DNA of 11,363 nucleotides from a virus (taxonomy: Duplodnaviria; Heunggongvirae; Uroviricota; Caudoviricetes). The DNA lies in IMG/VR virus record IMGVR_UViG_2563366799_000008. One strand, given 5' to 3'. This document shows positions 1 through 9,724 of this stretch, in pieces. Numbering within the stretch: position 1 is the first letter of the stretch; every line of letters starts with the position of its first letter. Below the pieces are notes generated by a model that saw nothing but the letters and a program-made list of their open reading frames with translations, had not been told where the DNA came from and did not search any database. The position numbers were made by a program, and so were the translations under genes.

Positions 1-742
<742 letters not shown>

Positions 743-831
743 ATGAGACTTCATATTATAACTATAATTATGTAAAAAAGGCTGGTATTTTATACCTTGA
801 GGAAAATAGATAAGAGGAATGAGGTTTGGTT

Positions 832-2223
832 ATGATGAATTATACTGATGAGTCAACTTTTCTTGAAAAGTACAAACCGTTTAGGAAGTTTTGGACAATT
901 TTATCACCTCATTATGTATCTTTAATGCATGCACTTGCCAAAATGATAAGGGGAGGGAATCCAATTCAAGAACTACCTTCCAATGATGAGGATTTTCTTG
1001 CAGAGTATGAAACCTGTCTCAAAAATTGGAAAGACTCACAAAAAATCATATCTTTTGAGATTATTATTCGGCTGAGAGATATAAAAAGATTGGAAACTGA
1101 AAAAAAAGAGCACCATCGAAACAAGGATAAAGAAAATAAAGAAAAGTGTATTGATGAAATAAGTTTAAAAAAATTTGAAATTCTTATTCTTCGCCGTTGT
1201 ATTGACTCAATAATTTGGAGCATTCTTGATGAAGAACACTCTAGTTTGCGGCGTTTACCTATTAATGCAAGCAATGACAATCTATCAGAAGATAACATAA
1301 TTGATTCTATGGTCGCAGCCGATCTTATCAACCAGGACAAACACTCCGTAGCGATTGTCTCTGACATGAGCACATTTGTTCATGTGGGAGATTTAGTCAC
1401 CTTTAATCTACTGGATGGCTTCCAGCTCGTGGAAGTTAAAACAGGTGAAAAGAATAATGAGCTTTATGAAGCTGCTGAATTTTCTGTTATCTCAGAATGT
1501 CCGCACTTTGAAGAAAACTTCATTAACAATATGCCTGATAATGATGTTAAGCAATTTAATCGCATAAAAAGGCAAATCATTCGTGGCATGAATGTTCTGG
1601 AGGCGATTAATACTGGCGAGGGCTTTGACAACTTTCATCAGTCTAAAGTTAAAATCAATGAGATAGATCATCCGTCTGAATTTTATACCCACCGCTTAGT
1701 TAAAATGTGGGAGATTATTCGCGGAGGAAAAAATTGGGCAATTGATACTATTGATGAATGTTTGTTCTTAGGTATGTACCGTGATTCTGAAATGGGCTTT
1801 GTTGCCTTCAATGGATGGATGGATAGTCTCGGTATAAAAAGCCCTGTTGTGAATATAAATGATTCATTCTTTGACCCTTTGTCTCGACCATTTATGAGTT
1901 TGCATCTGCCAACTGAAATGCTCTCCGATCTCATGTCGGGACAAATAATCATCGTCATGTGTTTTGACAATGAACTTTTTTTTCACCGTGCTAACAAAAC
2001 GTACCCGGGTTTATATCTCCTTAGCGATGCAGCAAGAACAAAGCAGCCATTAGAAAATATTCTTCGTGTTGGTTCACAAGGGATAGCTTCTTACGTAGAT
2101 GGGAATACCAGCTTTTTAGGTAATGGTATTGAATCCCGTATCCTTTTCGATCAGCAACGACCCGACAACATTATTGAGTGGAGCTATGCTAGAAGCGATC
2201 TCAAAAAGCAACATGAAGCATAA
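832..2223 (+). CDS. hypothetical protein with a PD-(D/E)xK nuclease-like motif; candidate defence effector
   Basis: 463-aa ORF; track start TTG 826, but ATG 832 is preceded by GAGG at 821-824. About 33% GC. Residues HVGDLVTF...QLVEVK (nt ~1390-1440) fit the D...ExK catalytic signature. Lys/Glu-rich predicted helical stretch at residues ~80-125. No Walker A motif seen. Confidence 0.75.
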   Translation: MMNYTDESTFLEKYKPFRKFWTILSPHYVSLMHALAKMIRGGNPIQELPSNDEDFLAEYETCLKNWKDSQKIISFEIIIRLRDIKRLETEKKEHHRNKDKENKEKCIDEISLKKFEILILRRCIDSIIWSILDEEHSSLRRLPINASNDNLSEDNIIDSMVAADLINQDKHSVAIVSDMSTFVHVGDLVTFNLLDGFQLVEVKTGEKNNELYEAAEFSVISECPHFEENFINNMPDNDVKQFNRIKRQIIRGMNVLEAINTGEGFDNFHQSKVKINEIDHPSEFYTHRLVKMWEIIRGGKNWAIDTIDECLFLGMYRDSEMGFVAFNGWMDSLGIKSPVVNINDSFFDPLSRPFMSLHLPTEMLSDLMSGQIIIVMCFDNELFFHRANKTYPGLYLLSDAARTKQPLENILRVGSQGIASYVDGNTSFLGNGIESRILFDQQRPDNIIEWSYARSDLKKQHEA

Positions 2224-2485
2224 GCCGTTGGATGGGATTTCCCATGAATTGCCATGGATAATCTAGACACTTCGAGCCGTTGATAATGTTGATTTTCGTA
2301 TTCTGTCGGTGGAGTATCCCGAAAGGTATAGAGCAAAACCTGGAGAAAACACACAGCATCCCATTTTAATCTTTAACTCTGACCTTCCATAATGTCCGCT
2401 GTTGGCACAAAGCGGACAACCACGCTAGCTCTACCCTGTGCCACAAAATGTCAATTTGCATCTGAACTAATGCACTTTAATCTCG

Positions 2486-2908
2486 TCACTTCAATAAATA
2501 CCGAACATCCCCCTGATAAAACGACAATATGCGCTGCATAACTTCGCTTTTACGACACTCAGTACAAATCATATTATGACGCCTGTCGTAACGACGTATT
2601 TCTCCATCAGGTAATGACCAGATAAGGTCCGGATCAACCGCAGATGGTTTCTTCAGCTTTGCCCTTGAGAGCTTTTTACGGGCATTTTGCCAGTCCTTAC
2701 GCGCCTGTTCAGACGGGAATAACCCGTAACCAGAGTTGTATACATCGCCACTGGCAACCAGCTCTCTGGCCAGAACGTTCATCAGATATTTTGTTGCCCC
2801 AGTTTTAGTTTCCAGTTGTCTTAACGTCTCGCGCCCACTCTGGCGTACGAGTTCAACAACCTGCCCTTTAATTTTTTCCCGCTCTTCTTGTGTAAAAACT
2901 TTTGCCAC
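2486..2908 (-). CDS. hypothetical protein, 140 aa, last gene of the rightward early operon
   Basis: GTG start at 2908 with AGGAGGG immediately upstream on the - strand (short spacer). Lys/Arg-rich C-terminal half. Codirectional with and just downstream of the O-like gene. No family recognised. Confidence 0.55.
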   Translation of the reverse strand: MAKVFTQEEREKIKGQVVELVRQSGRETLRQLETKTGATKYLMNVLARELVASGDVYNSGYGLFPSEQARKDWQNARKKLSRAKLKKPSAVDPDLIWSLPDGEIRRYDRRHNMICTECRKSEVMQRILSFYQGDVRYLLK

Positions 2909-2948
2909 AAGCCCTCCTGAAAATTACCTCATGACCAGAAATTAACAC

Positions 2949-4019
2949 TTACCCCCTGAAGCCCGGCGGAATTTCGTTATCCGGTTCAGAAATATGATTC
3001 ACACAACGCTGGTTGTTCGTGCCGCTTACCGGGAGCAACCAGGGGTTCTCAAAATTCCGGTCCGGTCCAAAAAACGTCGTCGCTCGCTGAACAAATTCCG
3101 TTCCCGTTTTCCCGGTAGCCGCCAAGTATCTTGCGTAACGCCTCACGCCATCCAGCATGGCCTCTGGTGGCACCCCCTCGCGTAATCTGGCCTTCCAGGC
3201 ACTGAAAGCGGATTTCTTCGGGTTTGCTCCGGCACGCAACGGGTACTCCCGCCAGACCTGTTCGAACACATCCGGATAATCCACTCGTCCCACAGACTGC
3301 CCGGTGTTTTCCGGGACTACCCGATCGGCTTCCCGCTGAATGGCGGAATCGGCTTCGGGCTGCTGCAGTTGGTGTGATTGCTCCGGCCTTGCGGTCATCA
3401 CCTGCTGCACAGCGCCCGAATCGGCTTTCAGCGCATACGCTGAATCGGCTTCCGGTGTCGTGCCTGCTGGCTGACCAAGATTGACGGTCTGAACATCCCC
3501 TGCCTGGTTCGTGGCGTTTTTTACGCCATGGACCATAGTGTTTTGATCTTCTTGATCTGTATCTTTATCTGTATCTTTATCTTTCGTGACTCGTCGTGAC
3601 ATGTGCGTGACATTTCGTGACGCGCCGTGACAATCGCCATTTTGTTCCCGCTTTCTTTCCCTCTCTCGCTGCGCCCTCTTGCGCTCTGCAGGAGATTTTG
3701 CGGTTTGCGAAATATTGCCGTTGTCCTCTTTAAGCACCTGGCGTTTTTCCCATCCAGTGATTAAATCACCATCAAGTACCCGCCCCTGCATCGTCTGCAA
3801 AATTGAATCAATTACCTCTTCTGTCACGTCGAGCGCACTTGCCAAATCTTCTGTCGTGACATCAATGTGACCTCGCGTGACATTTCGTGACGCGCTCACC
3901 AAGAGGTGGATATACACTGCCATCACTGTTGCAATTGGCTGCCCTGACACCCTGGCAATTGTTCGCCACTTAGGGTCATTTGGCATGTCATGCCATAATC
4001 TGAGCCAGGCGTTAGCCAT
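2949..4019 (-). CDS. phage replication initiation protein (lambda O-like / YdaU-like replisome organiser)
   Basis: Track ORF 2949-4025; ATG at 4019 preferred (MANAWLRLWHDMPNDPKW...). C-terminal FEQVWREYPLRAGANPKKSAFSAWKARL resembles prophage replication proteins. Internal iteron clusters and an AT-rich tandem repeat lie within the coding sequence, as in lambda O. Confidence 0.8.
   Translation of the reverse strand: MANAWLRLWHDMPNDPKWRTIARVSGQPIATVMAVYIHLLVSASRNVTRGHIDVTTEDLASALDVTEEVIDSILQTMQGRVLDGDLITGWEKRQVLKEDNGNISQTAKSPAERKRAQRERERKREQNGDCHGASRNVTHMSRRVTKDKDTDKDTDQEDQNTMVHGVKNATNQAGDVQTVNLGQPAGTTPEADSAYALKADSGAVQQVMTARPEQSHQLQQPEADSAIQREADRVVPENTGQSVGRVDYPDVFEQVWREYPLRAGANPKKSAFSAWKARLREGVPPEAMLDGVRRYARYLAATGKTGTEFVQRATTFFGPDRNFENPWLLPVSGTNNQRCVNHISEPDNEIPPGFRG
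3545..3584. repeat. AT-rich tandem hexamer repeat (ATCTKT units) inside the O-like gene
   Basis: atctgt atcttt atctgt atcttt atcttt at 3555-3584, preceded by gatctt. Encodes the KDKDTDKDTD linker on the - strand. Lies directly beside iteron cluster 1. Confidence 0.7.
3585..3631. repeat. iteron cluster 1: five CGTGAC direct repeats at ~10-11 bp spacing (putative replication origin)
   Basis: CGTGAC at 3585, 3595, 3606, 3616 and 3626. The 21-bp block gcgtgacatttcgtgacgcgc (3605-3625) recurs exactly at 3875-3895. Confidence 0.6.
3855..3895. repeat. iteron cluster 2: four (C/T)GTGAC direct repeats at ~10-11 bp spacing
   Basis: CGTGAC at 3855, TGTGAC at 3866, CGTGAC at 3876 and 3886. An inverted copy (gtcacg) sits at 3824-3829. 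Contains the exact 21-bp copy of 3605-3625. Confidence 0.6.
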
Positions 4020-4090
4020 ACTCACCTCTTTTGATACCGAATCTTTTTACTCATAAATTGCCGGAAGTGATCCGGTATGAATATTGCGAG

Positions 4091-4516
4091 TCAATGCACA
4101 GCCACAATATTTCCTGCAGGGCCACCACGATTCATCTGGTTGAAACCAGCGATCGCCACTGCGACAAAATCATCAGCGTCTCTCACCAGTCGTTCCCGCG
4201 TCTCCACTAGTTCCCGAAAATAGGCTGAGCTATGACTGCGCATTCGGGCCACCAGCAGAGGTGGCATTGCTTTTTCGATAGCTGGTAACAACGCCTGAAT
4301 TTTTTTAACCGCATCAGGGGTGTCTTTCTCCACCCAGCGGAAAATTTTCTGAGTATTGCGAGCCAGGGCTTCCGGATGGCTGTCGTCATACAGTTCCGGG
4401 AACGTCATTCCCAGCTCGAAATACGCTTTGGTAATTTTCGCAGCCGGTACTTTTTCGCCGTCCGGATGCGCCCAGGCATTCATCGCCATGCGGATGTGTT
4501 CATGCTTGATTTTCAT
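4091..4516 (-). CDS. YdaT-like protein (Rac-type prophage, cII-position gene)
   Basis: 141 aa, begins MKIKHEHI as I recall for Rac YdaT. GGGAG SD about 6 nt upstream. Its ATG overlaps the stop of the Cro-like gene (ATGA), suggesting translational coupling. Confidence 0.75.
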   Translation of the reverse strand: MKIKHEHIRMAMNAWAHPDGEKVPAAKITKAYFELGMTFPELYDDSHPEALARNTQKIFRWVEKDTPDAVKKIQALLPAIEKAMPPLLVARMRSHSSAYFRELVETRERLVRDADDFVAVAIAGFNQMNRGGPAGNIVAVH

Positions 4517-4767
4517 GAATCAACTCCCATCAGCTTTTTCGTAGTAGTTTTATTCCTGCCAATAGTTAAAATTGCATCGGCAGAAAATAATCCGTTTGAT
4601 GCAAGAGCGATTTTTTCAGCGTAATTTGTTTCGCCGGTATATTCTGTGCGAGGCAATTTTCCGTTATCCATCCATTTATAGATTGCTCTTTGGCTGACAC
4701 CACAAACGTCGGCCACAACAGCAACGCGAACAGTTTTGATTACATCTTCAAGTGTTTTCTGGTTCAT
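4513..4767 (-). CDS. Cro-like HTH regulator (YdaS-like)
   Basis: Track ORF 4513-4839; ATG at 4767 preferred because GAGGG sits just upstream and the product starts MNQKTLEDVIKT. HTH-like segment VADVCGVSQRAIYKWMDNGKLP. Divergent from the repressor gene. Confidence 0.7.
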   Translation of the reverse strand: MNQKTLEDVIKTVRVAVVADVCGVSQRAIYKWMDNGKLPRTEYTGETNYAEKIALASNGLFSADAILTIGRNKTTTKKLMGVDS

Positions 4768-4846
4768 ATCACCCTCACAATGTGAACTTTGAGTACATGC
4801 TATAACAGAACTGACAGTACATTCAAGAGCGAATATCATTGAACTT
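4768..4846. promoter_or_regulatory. divergent immunity promoter/operator region (OR-like)
   Basis: 79-bp gap between divergent cro-like and repressor genes. Direct AGTACAT repeats at 4792-4798 and 4816-4822. + strand candidate: -35 CTGACA 4811-4816, 17-bp spacer, -10 TATCAT 4834-4839, placing the start at or next to the repressor ATG. - strand candidate: -35 TTGAAT, -10 TATAGC (weak). Confidence 0.45.
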
Positions 4847-5266
4847 ATGGTTCATGAAGATAAAGCGCGTAAAGAGTTCGCCAGTAGGCTTGCGCTAGCC
4901 TGTGAAAACGCTGGTTATGAACAACATGGAAGGCAGGCAGAAATTGCCCGTCGAATGAAATTAACACCAAAAGCGGTTAGCAAATGGTTTAATGGCGAAA
5001 CAATTCCTCGCCGGGAGAAATTAAGGGAATTAGCAACACTAATAGGAACAACACCAACCTATCTTTTGGGAGAGGATACAGAAGAAAGTGGACAGGTACG
5101 TTTCTATCAGGAGTTAAATCCAAGACAAAAAATCATCATTGACCTTCTGGACGAGCTCCCTGACAGTGAGACAGATGAACTTTTAAAAACTCTTGAAGAG
5201 AAAAAACAGAAGTACAATGCAATTTACGAAGAGTTAGCACGAAAGAAAAAACAAAAAGCCTCTTAA
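4847..5266 (+). CDS. prophage repressor, XRE-family HTH (DicA/RacR-like CI analogue)
   Basis: 139 aa. N-terminal HTH (AEIARRMKLTPKAVSKWFNGETIP) and acidic/basic helical C-terminus. Divergent from the cro-like gene. No SD upstream, consistent with a leaderless transcript. Confidence 0.85.
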   Translation: MVHEDKARKEFASRLALACENAGYEQHGRQAEIARRMKLTPKAVSKWFNGETIPRREKLRELATLIGTTPTYLLGEDTEESGQVRFYQELNPRQKIIIDLLDELPDSETDELLKTLEEKKQKYNAIYEELARKKKQKAS

Positions 5267-6555: not shown

Positions 6556-6613
6556 TTTCTGGTGACGTTTGGCGGTATCAGTTTTACTCCGTGACTGCTC
6601 TGCCGCCGTTTTT
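6556..6613 (+). ncRNA. dicF: DicF small regulatory RNA (ftsZ-targeting, Hfq-dependent) with 3' T-tract
   Basis: tttctggtgacgtttggcggtatcagttttactccgtgactgctctgccgcc followed by gttttt matches the ~53-nt DicF sequence as I remember it. Lies about 170 bp upstream of dicB, as in Qin. Confidence 0.8.
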
Positions 6614-6782: not shown

Positions 6783-6971
6783 ATGAAAACGTTATTACCA
6801 AACGTTAATACGTCTGAAGGTTGTTTTGAAATTGGTGTCACTATCAGTAACCCTGTATTTACTGAAGATGCCATTAACAAGAGAAAACACGAACGGGAGC
6901 TATTAAATAAAATATGCATTCTTTCAATGTTGGCCCGTTTACGTCCGATACAAAAAGGATGCTGGCAATGA
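6783..6971 (+). CDS. dicB: cell-division inhibitor DicB (acts through MinC)
   Basis: 62-aa product MKTLLPNVNTSEGCFEIGVTISNPVFTEDAINKRK...KGCWQ is near-identical to K-12 DicB as I recall it. GAGGA SD 7 nt upstream. Track ORF 6678-6971 is an upstream extension. Confidence 0.85.
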   Translation: MKTLLPNVNTSEGCFEIGVTISNPVFTEDAINKRKHERELLNKICILSMLARLRPIQKGCWQ

Positions 6972-7252: not shown

Positions 7253-9724
7253 ATGAGTAAAGTCTTTATTTGCGCCGCTATTCCTGACGAACTGGCAACA
7301 AGGGAAGAAGGCGCTGTGGCTGTAGCCACAGCCATTGAAGCTGGCGACGAACGCCGTGCTCGAGCAAAATTTCACTGGCAGTTCCTGGAACATTATCCGG
7401 CTGCTCAGGACTGCGCTTATAAATTTATTGTCTGCGAGGATAAACCTGGCATACCCCGCCCTGCCCTCGATTCATGGGATGCTGAATATATGCAGGAAAA
7501 CCGCTGGGATGAGGAGTCTGCTTCTTTTGTCCCGGTTGAGACTGAATCCGATCCGATGAACGTCACTTTTGACAAGCTGGCCCCTGAAGTACAGAACGCT
7601 GTCATGGTTAAGTTCGACACATGTGAAAACATCACCGTTGATATGGTTATTAGCGCACAGGAATTGTTGCAGGAAGACATGGCAACATTCGACGGACATA
7701 TCGTTGAAGCGTTGATGAAAATGCCAGAAGTTAACGCCATGTATCCGGAGCTTAAGTTGCACGCCATTGGGTGGGTTAAGCATAAATGTATTCCTGGTGC
7801 TAAATGGCCCGAAATTCAGGCAGAGATGCGCATCTGGAAAAAACGTCGCGAAGGTGAACGCAAGGAAACCGGAAAATACACGTCTGTTGTTGATCTCGCC
7901 CGCGCCAGAGCCAATCAACAGTACACTGAAAATTCAACAGGAAAAATCAGCCCGGTCATTGCTGCCATTCATCGCGAATACAAGCAGACATGGAAAACAC
8001 TGGATGACGAACTGGCCTACGCTCTCTGGCCTGGTGATGTAGATGCCGGAAACATTGACGGCAGCATCCATCGCTGGGCAAAAAATGAAGTTATCGACAA
8101 CGACCGCGAAGACTGGAAGCGTATCTCGGCATCAATGCGCAAACAGCCTGATGCCCTTCGCTACGACCGCCAGACTATTTTTGGCCTTGTCCGTGAACGT
8201 CCGATCGACATTCACAAAGACCCTGTGGCACTGAACAAATACATTACTGAATACCTGACTACAAAGGGCGTGTTTGAAGATGAAGGAACAAATCAGAGCG
8301 CAACTGATACTCTCTCGTCGCCAGTACCAGAAACTGATGCAGTGGAAACGGCAATTCCAGACAACGAAAAAACCGAATGCAAAGTGGAAGTCGAACCATC
8401 TGTAGAACGTGAGGGGCCGTTCTACTTCCTCTTCACCGACAAGGATGGCGAAAAATACGGTCGCGCAAACAAACTTTCTGGTCTGGATAAGGCGCTGTCT
8501 GCTGGGGCTACTGAAATCACGAAAGAAGAATATTTCGCCCGCAAAAACGGTACATACTCAGGTTCACAACAAAATACTGGTGCATCTGACACGACCGCAC
8601 AACCAGGGTCAGTAAAAGTTACCGCTGACGAAGTAAACAAAATTATGCAGGCAGCCAATATCAGCCAGCCTGACGCCGATGAACTGCTTGCAGTATCACG
8701 TGGTGAATTTGTTGAAGGGATTAGCGACCCGAATGATCCGAAATGGGTTAAGGGGATCCAGACCCGCGATTCTGTGAACCAGAACCAGCAAGAAACGGAA
8801 CAGAACGACCAGAAAGCGGAACAAAACAGCCCAAATACGCAACAAAACGAGCCAGAAACAAAACAACCTGAACCAGTAGTGCAACAGGAACCGGAAAAGA
8901 TCTGCACCGCCTGCGGTCATAGCGGTGGCGGCAACTGCCCTGATTGTGGTGCGGTGATGGGTGACGCAACATACCAGGAAATATTCGATGGAGAGAATCA
9001 GCCTGAAGTTCAGGAAAATGATCCGGAGGAAATGGAAGGCACTGCGCATCAGCACAAGGAGAACACTGGCGGCAATCAGCATCACAATAGCGATAATGAA
9101 ACTGGCGAGACGGCAGATCACTCAATTAAGGTGAACGGTCATCACGAAATCACATCCACCAGCAGGACGTGTGACCATCTAATGATCGACCTTGAAACCA
9201 TGGGAAAAAATCCTGATGCCCCGATCATCTCAATAGGTGCAATATTTTTCGATCCGCAAACCGGAGATATGGGACCGGAATTTAGTAAGACTATCGATCT
9301 GGAAACTGCTGGCGGAGTCATTGATCGGGACACCATTAAATGGTGGCTTAAGCAATCACGCGAAGCGCAATCTGCCATTATGACCGATGAAATCCCGTTA
9401 GATGATGCACTGTTACAATTGCGGGAATTTATCGACGAAAACTCCGGTGAATTTTTTGTTCATGTCTGGGGAAATGGAGCCAACTTCGACAACACGATTT
9501 TGCGCCGTTCATACGAACGGCAGGGAATCCCCTGCCCGTGGCGTTACTACAACGATCGCGATGTACGCACAATCGTTGAGCTGGGGAAAGCCATAGACTT
9601 CGATGCCAGAACGGCTATTCCATTCGAAGGTGAGCGCCATAATGCACTTGATGACGCCCGTTACCAGGCAAAATACGTTTCAGCTATCTGGCAAAAACTG
9701 ATCCCGAGTCAGGCTGATTCTTAA
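7253..9724 (+). CDS. exodeoxyribonuclease VIII-like early protein (YdfE-like) with C-terminal DnaQ-like DEDDh 3'-5' exonuclease domain
   Basis: 823-aa ORF with GAGG SD. C-terminus carries Exo I (IDLETMG, D at nt 9188), Exo II (WGNGANFDNTIL) and Exo III (HNALDDARY) motifs. Middle has a Q/N/E-rich low-complexity linker (~8760-8900) and a CTACGHSGGGNCPDCG zinc-ribbon-like motif (~8910-8960). Confidence 0.9.
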   Translation: MSKVFICAAIPDELATREEGAVAVATAIEAGDERRARAKFHWQFLEHYPAAQDCAYKFIVCEDKPGIPRPALDSWDAEYMQENRWDEESASFVPVETESDPMNVTFDKLAPEVQNAVMVKFDTCENITVDMVISAQELLQEDMATFDGHIVEALMKMPEVNAMYPELKLHAIGWVKHKCIPGAKWPEIQAEMRIWKKRREGERKETGKYTSVVDLARARANQQYTENSTGKISPVIAAIHREYKQTWKTLDDELAYALWPGDVDAGNIDGSIHRWAKNEVIDNDREDWKRISASMRKQPDALRYDRQTIFGLVRERPIDIHKDPVALNKYITEYLTTKGVFEDEGTNQSATDTLSSPVPETDAVETAIPDNEKTECKVEVEPSVEREGPFYFLFTDKDGEKYGRANKLSGLDKALSAGATEITKEEYFARKNGTYSGSQQNTGASDTTAQPGSVKVTADEVNKIMQAANISQPDADELLAVSRGEFVEGISDPNDPKWVKGIQTRDSVNQNQQETEQNDQKAEQNSPNTQQNEPETKQPEPVVQQEPEKICTACGHSGGGNCPDCGAVMGDATYQEIFDGENQPEVQENDPEEMEGTAHQHKENTGGNQHHNSDNETGETADHSIKVNGHHEITSTSRTCDHLMIDLETMGKNPDAPIISIGAIFFDPQTGDMGPEFSKTIDLETAGGVIDRDTIKWWLKQSREAQSAIMTDEIPLDDALLQLREFIDENSGEFFVHVWGNGANFDNTILRRSYERQGIPCPWRYYNDRDVRTIVELGKAIDFDARTAIPFEGERHNALDDARYQAKYVSAIWQKLIPSQADS

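Follow-up and report, generated by a model that had tools for sequence, protein, structure and literature searches.

An initiator-only replicon in a lambdoid prophage of Escherichia coli, with a DnaT-like initiator tail as a possible dock for host DnaC-DnaB

An 11.4-kb stretch of viral DNA (11,363 nt; IMG/VR record IMGVR_UViG_2563366799_000008; the whole stretch is called the window below) holds the early region of a lambdoid prophage, and the replication module of this prophage, in an operon read right to left on the - strand, consists of an initiator gene followed directly by a gene for a 140-aa protein of the DUF977 family. The explanation that best accounts for this module as a whole, to which we give a probability of about 60%, is that it is a complete initiator-only (O-only) replicon in which a short C-terminal tail of the initiator, the same as the extreme C-terminus of host DnaT, docks host DnaC-DnaB. 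What is new here is the DnaT-like tail as a specific hypothesis, since the O-only class itself is already known; apart from this lead, the window is an ordinary, very common E. coli prophage module.

In the mechanism that we propose, the N-terminal domain (N-domain) of the initiator would bind phased GTCAC(G) iterons in its own gene, beside an AT-rich unwinding repeat, as in the lambda origin. A disordered linker would join it to a three-helix C-terminal domain (C-domain) and a tail of 13-24 residues (...SEPDNEIPPGFRG), which would dock host DnaC in the form of DnaB6-DnaC6 at the opened origin, such that host DnaC loads host DnaB. Since the initiator has this IPxGFRG tail and the module has no DnaC gene of its own, the replicon would use host DnaC-DnaB. 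The DnaC copy that related prophages carry between initiator and DUF977 would be an optional cassette, and DUF977 would be a Ren-like winged-helix accessory that does not help to load the helicase.

Absence of a loader gene from an intact module

An earlier note on this DNA had remarked that the replication module has no helicase-loader gene, and our scans with hidden Markov models and with tblastn bear this out. We found no match to the DnaC/IstB, Phage_lambda_P (PF06992) or DnaB families among the open reading frames (ORFs) of the window (Pfam, PHROG, NCBIfam) and no Walker-A ORF downstream of the initiator. With phage DnaC (from phiSTEC1589) and lambda P as tblastn queries, the best E value was 0.03 in the window, its 42-kb context (L001) and the complete genome of phage Tritos. 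The coordinates and strands also agree with the layout described in the note, in which the initiator is followed by only a 140-aa basic protein and then a convergent cassette (Table 1). The region that we compared (2200-4600) is 100% identical to E. coli chromosomes, for instance that of FDAARGOS_1058, in which the prophage is integrated beside rspB/ynfA (the Qin site). The order CI / Cro / CII-like / initiator places the initiator in the early-right operon after cro/cII. Beyond the cargo cassette of FDAARGOS_1058 lie hokD, DUF968/ydfU, the Q antiterminator, and lysis and structural genes, and thus no loader at the place where, by the note, one would have spoken against its reading.

The note had left a choice between truncation of the prophage at this point (a cryptic element) and a different route of helicase recruitment. 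We considered that the module might be a truncated remnant, with its loader lost and replication dead, based on the existence of DnaC-containing relatives (one of which, L160, has the same N-domain, called A here), a frameshifted terminase in one host genome, the (weak) possibility that the 41-bp spacer after the initiator is a deletion scar, and the general knowledge that Qin, at the same locus of K-12, is cryptic. We find this reading scarcely credible, because Tritos, which has the same module and forms plaques, already contradicts it. The initiator and DUF977 pair is found in seven sequenced phages at 95-97% nucleotide identity; in Tritos (96%), the amino acid identity is 98.9% in the initiator and 95% in DUF977, the cargo gene is a different one, and none of the 56 annotated features of the 46,360-bp genome is a loader, P, DnaC or helicase. 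Tritos arose by spontaneous induction from strain LF82, was picked as a plaque on MG1655 hsdR- and propagated, and showed siphovirus morphology on imaging. Furthermore, 1558 of 5426 complete E. coli genomes (29%) have the initiator and DUF977 genes in this contiguous order, at 95-100% identity. The operon also runs past the cargo into late genes and has its own candidate origin, and the independent loader-less phages LLS, SfV and SfII are viable. Thus, from the plaques of Tritos, the 1558 genomes and the downstream late genes, we conclude that the module is not a truncated remnant. It is very probably a functional loader-less replicon using host factors, with replication competence judged indirectly, from the near-identical module in Tritos.

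The spacer between initiator and DUF977 is identical in loader-less modules with different initiators, and its position is the site of the DnaC cassette (with or without DUF1627) in other prophages. As the deletion scar of such a cassette it was not convincing, with only a vague resemblance (GTCATGA ... GGAGG.GCTT). As to the prophage copy in FDAARGOS_1058, the annotation marks a frameshift in its large terminase gene (L001 5182-7282, outside the window), so this copy may not package DNA or make virions, which has no bearing on the replicon.

The second of the note's two options, a different recruitment route, is supported by Tritos and the 1558 genomes and also by a published class. The prophage, of the Qin/Tritos type in E. 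coli, is a frequent representative of the previously recognised O-only lambdoid class: an O homolog alone is found in LLS, and in 34 of 314 lambdoid phages of Enterobacterales, a situation described as "not yet understood" (Genome Res 2025, PMC12315714). The study, which has Tritos in its phage panel, gives no mechanism and does not mention the tail. By its gene content, our module resembles the O-only modules in having a single origin-binding initiator after cro/cII, no helicase or loader gene, and lambdoid order. The O protein of LLS also ends in a similar sequence (...IPEGFRG), but it has a P22 gp18-like N-domain and another C-domain, and a methyltransferase gene comes next instead of DUF977.

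The 140-aa protein, which the note had called unknown and had seen as taking the place of the loader, is a member of Pfam DUF977 (PF06163, E 1e-28, 100.4 bits vs a gathering score of 22.1), with an isoelectric point (pI) of 9.8 and 28 K+R vs 18 D+E. It belongs to PHROG 142, "Ren-like exclusion protein" (6.5e-45), and lambda Ren, encoded by the gene after P in lambda, matches the same profile over its full length (1.6e-41). In the AlphaFold 2 (AF2) model, residues 7-66 form a winged helix (predicted local distance difference test score, pLDDT, >90), followed by a long helix and a poor C-terminal part (pLDDT <60); Foldseek returned winged-helix DNA-binding domains only, and a 2009 profile analysis had called DUF977 a winged helix. 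Pairwise BLASTP with lambda Ren aligned only the C-terminal 20 aa (E 1e-5), so the homology with Ren rests on the shared PHROG profile. DUF977 is kept downstream of loader genes: the order is initiator-DnaC-DUF1627-DUF977 in many prophages as well as in phiSTEC1589, and other modules read initiator-P-DUF1627-DUF977. The loader-less phages SfV, SfII, 118970_sal3 and LLS are without DUF977 beside the initiator. Since it is present with loaders and missing beside the initiator in other loader-less phages, it is a ren-position accessory and not a substitute for a loader. Judged by profile and gene order, this winged-helix protein is homologous to lambda Ren and its gene stands where ren does; lambda can replicate without Ren.

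We also weighed the idea that DUF977 does the work of DnaC or P as a helicase loader or adaptor of a new kind, given that it is always the next gene in loader-less E. coli modules (among the loci listed in our surveys) at a fixed 41-bp spacing, that the protein is basic and conserved, and that its C-terminal half has no assigned fold. We consider this very improbable, as the gene is equally present after DnaC (with or without DUF1627) and after lambda-P, its family includes the product of the gene after P, the confident part of the model is a DNA-binding domain with nothing loader-like, and four loader-less phages do without it at this place. Nor did it prove to be a known loader or primase-recruitment factor.

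The initiator and the candidate origin in its gene

The initiator matches PHROG 3729, "replication initiation protein", at E 3e-257, and is named "phage replisome organizer" by NCBI. The whole protein has no Pfam family at E<=0.01; when the domains were split, the N-domain gave only a sub-threshold match to Phage_rep_org_N (PF09681; 16.5 bits, below the cutoff of 23.3, over profile positions 1-119 of 121) and the C-domain gave none. The domain map in Table 1 was drawn from the AF2 model and an alignment of homologs (A1). A search with A1 returned at least 80 near-identical loci, and diversity was surveyed by pattern scans instead. The C-domain, predicted to be three-helical like the C-terminal domain of DnaT, was found by tblastn in 207 phage records, from phages of Enterobacterales, Vibrio, Burkholderia and Ralstonia, and it matches PHROGs 1701 ("DnaD-like helicase loader") and 9327 ("primosomal protein"). 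The same linker, C-domain and tail occur on a different N-domain in P0031 and in phiSTEC1589 O, and O157 prophages combine the N-domain of our initiator with a DnaT-like domain (PF17948); by these alignments, the parts of the initiator recombine freely. We rejected N-domain A as the reason why no loader is needed, since the same N-domain precedes DnaC (Aeromonas, L160), lambda-P (Serratia, Yersinia, O157) and a primase-helicase (Pseudomonas).

The candidate origin lies within the initiator gene. Eight of the nine copies of CGTGAC in the window are found there, in two clusters ~260 bp apart, and five copies in 55 bp were obtained in 0/500 shuffles. Directly beside the second cluster, an AT-rich 12-bp tandem repeat, which encodes TDKDTDKDTDQ of the linker, is a candidate DNA-unwinding element by analogy with lambda ori. 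Initiator genes with N-domain A from Escherichia (including O157), Aeromonas, Pseudomonas, Serratia and Yersinia have these two clusters at matching positions, and GTCAC clusters were not found in one initiator with a different N-domain. This co-occurrence across five genera, with no clusters on N-domain B, ties N-domain A to the GTCAC iterons, which it presumably binds. In the reading frame of the initiator, the GTCACG iterons encode recurring peptides (SRNVT, CH.., VT..), and changes in iteron copy number thus appear as protein indels (e.g., P0003 and P0022 in A1). For DnaA boxes, we found one TTWTNCACA match in the window vs 1.5 expected, and so no sign of DnaA dependence.

This architecture is shared with lambda O-P-ren, in which iterons and an AT-rich region also lie inside the gene of a two-domain initiator with a flexible linker, and a ren homolog closes the module. 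In contrast to lambda, no P gene (PF06992) follows the initiator, the initiator has no sequence similarity to lambda O, and the origin sequences are unrelated, with 19-bp repeats as iterons in lambda and 5-6 bp cores at helical phase in the window. In iteron plasmids (pSC101 RepA, R6K pi, RK2 TrfA), the Rep protein binds phased iterons by an AT-rich region and relies on host DnaB-DnaC with no loader of its own, usually with a need for DnaA boxes as well. The module resembles these plasmids by architecture alone (a single initiator, phased iterons, an AT-rich region, no element-encoded loader), but its one consensus DnaA box is at chance level.

The DnaT-like tail and the loader gene downstream

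The last ~22 residues of the initiator align with the extreme C-terminus of DnaT, and the last ~13 (SEPD[SN]xIPPGFRG) are near-identical. The tail was matched by phmmer against PDB to DnaT 6aep (E 0.003), 2ru8 and 9zbt_D residues 159-179, and only positions 156-179 of the NCBIfam DnaT profile aligned (19 bits vs a cutoff of 201). This is the only similarity of the initiator to a solved structure or a curated cellular family. The N-terminal (oligomerisation) domain of DnaT was not detected in the initiator with the NCBIfam profile, and the DnaT C-terminal domain (PF17948) had no match at E<=1 in the C-terminal 117 aa of the initiator; the relative P0057 matches PF17948 at 1e-17. The DnaT crystal structure and the cryo-EM model of the preprimosome cover DnaT residues 84-153 only, not the tail, which leaves the tail of DnaT available to some other partner. 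We found no function defined for residues 154-179 in the DnaT literature searched and no paper on the string PPGFRG in a literature search. Recruitment of DnaB/DnaC by the PriA-PriB-DnaT preprimosome "remains unknown" (papers of 2024 and 2026), and according to the literature no direct contact of DnaC with PriA, PriB or DnaT has been shown. The hosts and many prophages are alike in that a tail-bearing protein is encoded directly upstream of a DnaC gene, as in the E. coli dnaT-dnaC operon. DnaT itself is recruited to forks by PriA/PriB, whereas the window initiator is probably specific for an origin sequence.

We surveyed the genes downstream of such initiators in two scans of IMG/VR, one for DNA encoding ...PDxxIPPGFRG-stop and the other anchored on DUF977 and thus independent of the tail; all counts, including those from species genomes below, are among the loci listed (at least 120 per scan). 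Two main layouts were found, either a DnaC-family gene 7 bp after the initiator stop, usually then DUF1627 and DUF977, or DUF977 at a 41-bp offset with no loader; in a third layout, seen in the DUF977-anchored scan, the initiator is followed by a lambda-P-like gene, DUF1627 and DUF977. In the pooled scans, an IPxGFRG tail was present on 54/54 initiators with a DnaC-family gene next (plus one locus scored DUF977>DnaC) and on 60/60 with no loader and DUF977 directly downstream, while all 11 with a lambda-P-like gene next had an acidic ...LDxEER..ALDC[PT]DW[RC]DD tail. The DUF977-anchored scan by itself gave the IPxGFRG tail on 58/58 loader-less initiators. Lambda O, which works with P (L005 687-1586), has an acidic end (...LDLTNTDWIYGVDL), in contrast to the ...IPPGFRG of the window initiator, and a Phage_lambda_P gene (PF06992) comes next to each of three N-domain-A initiators with acidic tails (Serratia, Yersinia, E. 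coli O157). The acidic class of tail precedes Phage_lambda_P whatever the N- or C-domain (e.g., L221, L222, L227, L228, L234, L236; L271-L273).

Individual phages gave a similar picture. The six loader-less phages that we inspected (Tritos, mEp460_ev081, SfV, SfII, 118970_sal3 and LLS) all have IP[PAET]GFRG ends, the tail or a close variant is found in Gifsy-1, phiSTEC1589 and Aeromonas pAEv1818, each with DnaC, and Pseudomonas P7869, with a primase-helicase, has no such tail. The initiators of Rac (ydaU-ydaV-ydaW), Gifsy-1 and phiSTEC1589-Stx1c resemble ours in linker, C-domain and tail (~64-80% identity, with residues 163-358 of phiSTEC1589 O matching the window initiator and the ...PDxxIPxGFRG tail present on Rac YdaU and Gifsy-1 O) and in the DUF977 gene downstream. 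They differ in having another N-domain, hence another iteron type, and a DnaC-family AAA+ loader 7 bp after the initiator stop, where the window has DUF977 directly and no IstB/DnaC gene. At >=70% identity, three clusters of initiators hold both DnaC-adjacent and loader-less members, and the DnaC cassette is thus optional within lineages. The tail is fused to at least five unrelated C-domains (window type, lambda-O-C-like, DnaD-like, DnaT C-terminal and P22-gp18-C-like) and to many N-domains, and thus behaves as a portable motif.

In a further scan, of one genome per species, host DnaT was labelled with the N-terminal 80 residues of E. coli DnaT (for use as a classifier only), which matched 82 ORFs. 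Among the matches listed, dnaC came next in 75 of the 75 evaluable of these 82 tail-bearing host dnaT genes, and in 6 of 7 short ORF fragments. The 25 longer prophage initiator-like ORFs included 22 with enough downstream sequence, followed by DnaC (17), nothing recognised (3), DUF1627 (1) or DUF977 (1); no tail-bearing ORF was followed by a P-like gene.

Thus, within the sequences surveyed, tail type tracks loader type, independently of N-domain and C-domain, and the simplest reading of this is that the tail is a loader-docking peptide. The pattern suggests that the acidic DW tail serves lambda-P and that IPxGFRG serves DnaC-family loaders. In lambda, it is the C-terminal part of O that binds P. 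For DnaC or DnaB-DnaC as the direct partner of the tail, we would allow slightly less than an even chance.

Several points weigh against this reading of the tail. Support for docking to DnaC is by association only, and the first survey was selected on the tail itself. The survey samples are redundant, with many near-identical E. coli prophages, such that clustering at 70% identity left only 5 loader-less, 14 DnaC and 4 P lineages, and counts were taken among the loci listed rather than over all loci. The phage phiP27, with DnaC and its own DnaB, has no such tail on L17, and DnaC is found beside other tails in Burkholderia and Ralstonia phages, so DnaC-family loaders do not universally need the tail. 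A published model favours the N-terminal domain of DnaT as the recruiter of DnaB/DnaC, and the tail could equally bind DnaB, PriA, PriB or SSB. Comparison of the initiator model with PDB by Foldseek gave no informative match (best E 1.3, generic MarR or sigma helices only), which we put down to the small size of the domains and to disorder in half of the model. Finally, Tritos and LLS were plated on K-12, which carries Rac ydaV, a DnaC-like gene, and loader help in trans is thus possible for both.

This last point leads to a rival in which there is no origin-specific loading, and the prophage obtains a loader in trans from another prophage (e.g., Rac ydaV) or replicates mainly by recombination (RecBCD/Chi, D-loops). 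E. coli usually has several lambdoid prophages with DnaC-like genes, the related places per genome numbering 2 at the median and 9 at most, and K-12 indicator strains carry Rac. Furthermore, the window has two Chi sites (GCTGGTGG; 4249-4256 and 9156-9163, both on the - strand) vs 0.22 expected, a count reached in 5/200 shuffles, which fits the Chi-rich "Tritos class" of the 2025 study, and that study ties this class of phage to RecBCD-aided growth (Genome Res 2025, PMC12315714). We nevertheless regard this rival as quite improbable. Conserved iterons, an AT-rich element and a highly conserved intact initiator, with 5786 member sequences in its 90% cluster, speak for initiation specific to this origin; the loaders of resident prophages are repressed in lysogens; and since host dnaC is always available, a DnaC copy in trans would be unnecessary.

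We also considered that the initiator might be an origin-tethered mimic of DnaT, whose C-terminal region or tail recruits PriA/PriB (or DnaT), such that the restart machinery loads DnaB. DnaT is indeed the only detectable cellular similarity of the initiator, sister initiators (SfV type, Aeromonas pAEv1818, O157 P0057) have PF17948, which in DnaT docks PriA and filaments on single-stranded DNA in the preprimosome, the disordered linker, with its acidic pI of 4.9, is reminiscent of the acidic linker through which DnaT binds PriB, and the Chi-rich Tritos-class phages are linked to recombination-dependent growth. We think this route unlikely, since the C-domain of our initiator has no PF17948 match even at E<=1, PriA is docked in the structure by DnaT residues 84-153 and not by the tail, and the genomic partner of the tail is a DnaC-family gene and never priA or priB. 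Moreover, where an initiator has the DnaT C-terminal domain together with an acidic tail, its partner is lambda-P, so the loader goes with the tail and not with this domain.

The same logic, applied to the host, suggests that the DnaT tail contacts DnaC-DnaB. We tentatively propose, at clearly less than even odds, that ...PDxxIPxGFRG is the peptide, so far missing, by which the E. coli primosome recruits DnaC (as DnaB6-DnaC6), and that prophage initiators share it. If so, DnaT would bring the helicase-loader complex to PriA/PriB-marked forks by its tail, and prophage initiators would bring their own or host DnaC to phage origins, which would explain O-only replication. C-terminal tails would then be a simple loader code (acidic DW for lambda-P, IPxGFRG for DnaC), and the annotation rule that this suggests is to read the loader used from the last ~15 residues of an enterobacterial prophage initiator. 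One small peptide would thereby make two questions testable, namely helicase loading in the ~11% of lambdoid phages that are O-only and recruitment of DnaB-DnaC by the preprimosome. The dnaT and dnaC genes of the host may have been taken over as a unit from a prophage initiator-dnaC module, and their operon would in that case be a domesticated module of this kind. SfV-type and Aeromonas pAEv1818 initiators have the DnaT C-terminal domain plus the tail.

Outside Enterobacterales, the same C-domain bears other tails, in Vibrio D290 (L215; ...DLDNGDWSSK), with no loader beside the initiator, in BcepIL02 (L216; ...DYDDFFNHRRGFDR) and in Ralstonia QkW1 (L217; ...QYDDIFERKRA). The tails appear to be specific to the host clade.

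Neighbouring genes and cargo

Table 1. Features of the window and of the initiator, with positions in the 11,363-nt stretch unless given as residues (aa)
Feature	Position	Strand	Remarks
AbiH abortive-infection gene	1-742	+	First ~166 nt of 5' end outside the window; Pfam AbiH 6e-37
Hypothetical gene, 465 aa	826/832-2223	+	RefSeq start 832 gives 463 aa; convergent cargo; downstream boundary of the replicon, outside it
DUF977 gene, 140 aa	2486-2908	-	Pfam PF06163; PHROG 142
Initiator-DUF977 spacer	2909-2948	-	41-bp start offset in survey
Replication initiator	2949-4025	-	GTG start, 358 aa; RefSeq ATG at 4019 gives 356 aa; PHROG 3729
C-terminal tail (aa 335-358, GTNNQRCVNHISEPDNEIPPGFRG)	2952-3023	-	Matches DnaT C-terminus
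C-terminal three-helix domain (aa 246-333, YPDVFEQVWREYP...FFGPDRNFENPW)	3027-3290	-	Predicted; pLDDT 85-95
Acidic disordered linker (aa 130-245)	3291-3638	-	pLDDT ~30; pI 4.9; many indels among homologs
AT-rich 12-bp tandem repeat (GATAAAGATACA x 2.8)	3540-3584	-	Directly downstream of cluster II; Tandem Repeats Finder (TRF) score 59, 95% matches
Iteron cluster II, 5 x GTCACG	3582-3632	-	10-11 bp spacing; candidate origin core; repeat families D1/D3; TRF period 10
Basic helix of initiator	aa 112-129		AF2 and alignment
N-terminal domain A (aa 1-95, MANAWLRLWHDMPNDPKWRTIA...)	3741-4025	-	Predicted helical (aa 4-90 in the AF2 map), winged-helix-like; pLDDT ~80-88
Iteron cluster I, 4 x GTCAC(G)	3853-3891	-	Three full hexamers; 10-11 bp spacing; within N-domain coding region
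CII-like / YdaT-family gene	4091-4516	-	Directly upstream of initiator, same early-right operon; PHROG 163 CII-like 3.5e-45; Pfam YdaT_toxin
Cro-like gene	4513-4767/4839	-	Early-right operon
CI	4847-5266		Divergent from early-right operon
DicF antisense small RNA	6557-6608	+	Rfam RF00039, 72.5 bits
dicB	6783-6971		After DicF; ydfD next
823-aa exonuclease	7253-9724	+	Pfam Rv2179c-like match
xis and int			Divergent side, with CI, DicF, dicB/ydfD and exonuclease

The gene in the CII position is annotated as "toxin YdaT family" by RefSeq and Pfam, as opposed to "CII-like transcriptional activator" by PHROGs, and genes of this family also stand ahead of the initiator in modules of Serratia, Yersinia and Aeromonas; the name "toxin" could be a misnomer. 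On the divergent side, DicF-dicB-ydfD is a Qin-type cell-division inhibition cassette, intact in this prophage. The 823-aa exonuclease, whose counterpart in Tritos is labelled exonuclease VIII, has a C-terminal Rv2179c-like 3'-5' exoribonuclease / DEDD domain (Pfam 4.6e-67), not a RecE-type fold, and its long N-terminal region had no family match. Scans for sigma-70 promoters and intrinsic terminators in 2150-5000 gave counts equal to those in shuffles, with nothing usable at the convergent junction.

The cargo between DUF977 and hokD consists of two genes (window 1-2223; L001 17635-20024) in a region where the GC content falls to 31-38%. The 463/465-aa protein had no match in Pfam, PHROG, NCBIfam or PADLOC, and AbiH is supported by a PADLOC match on the full 302-aa protein and by the RefSeq annotation. 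In Tritos, the cargo slot is occupied by a different gene, of 444 aa, which points to the site as a variable defence or moron hotspot.

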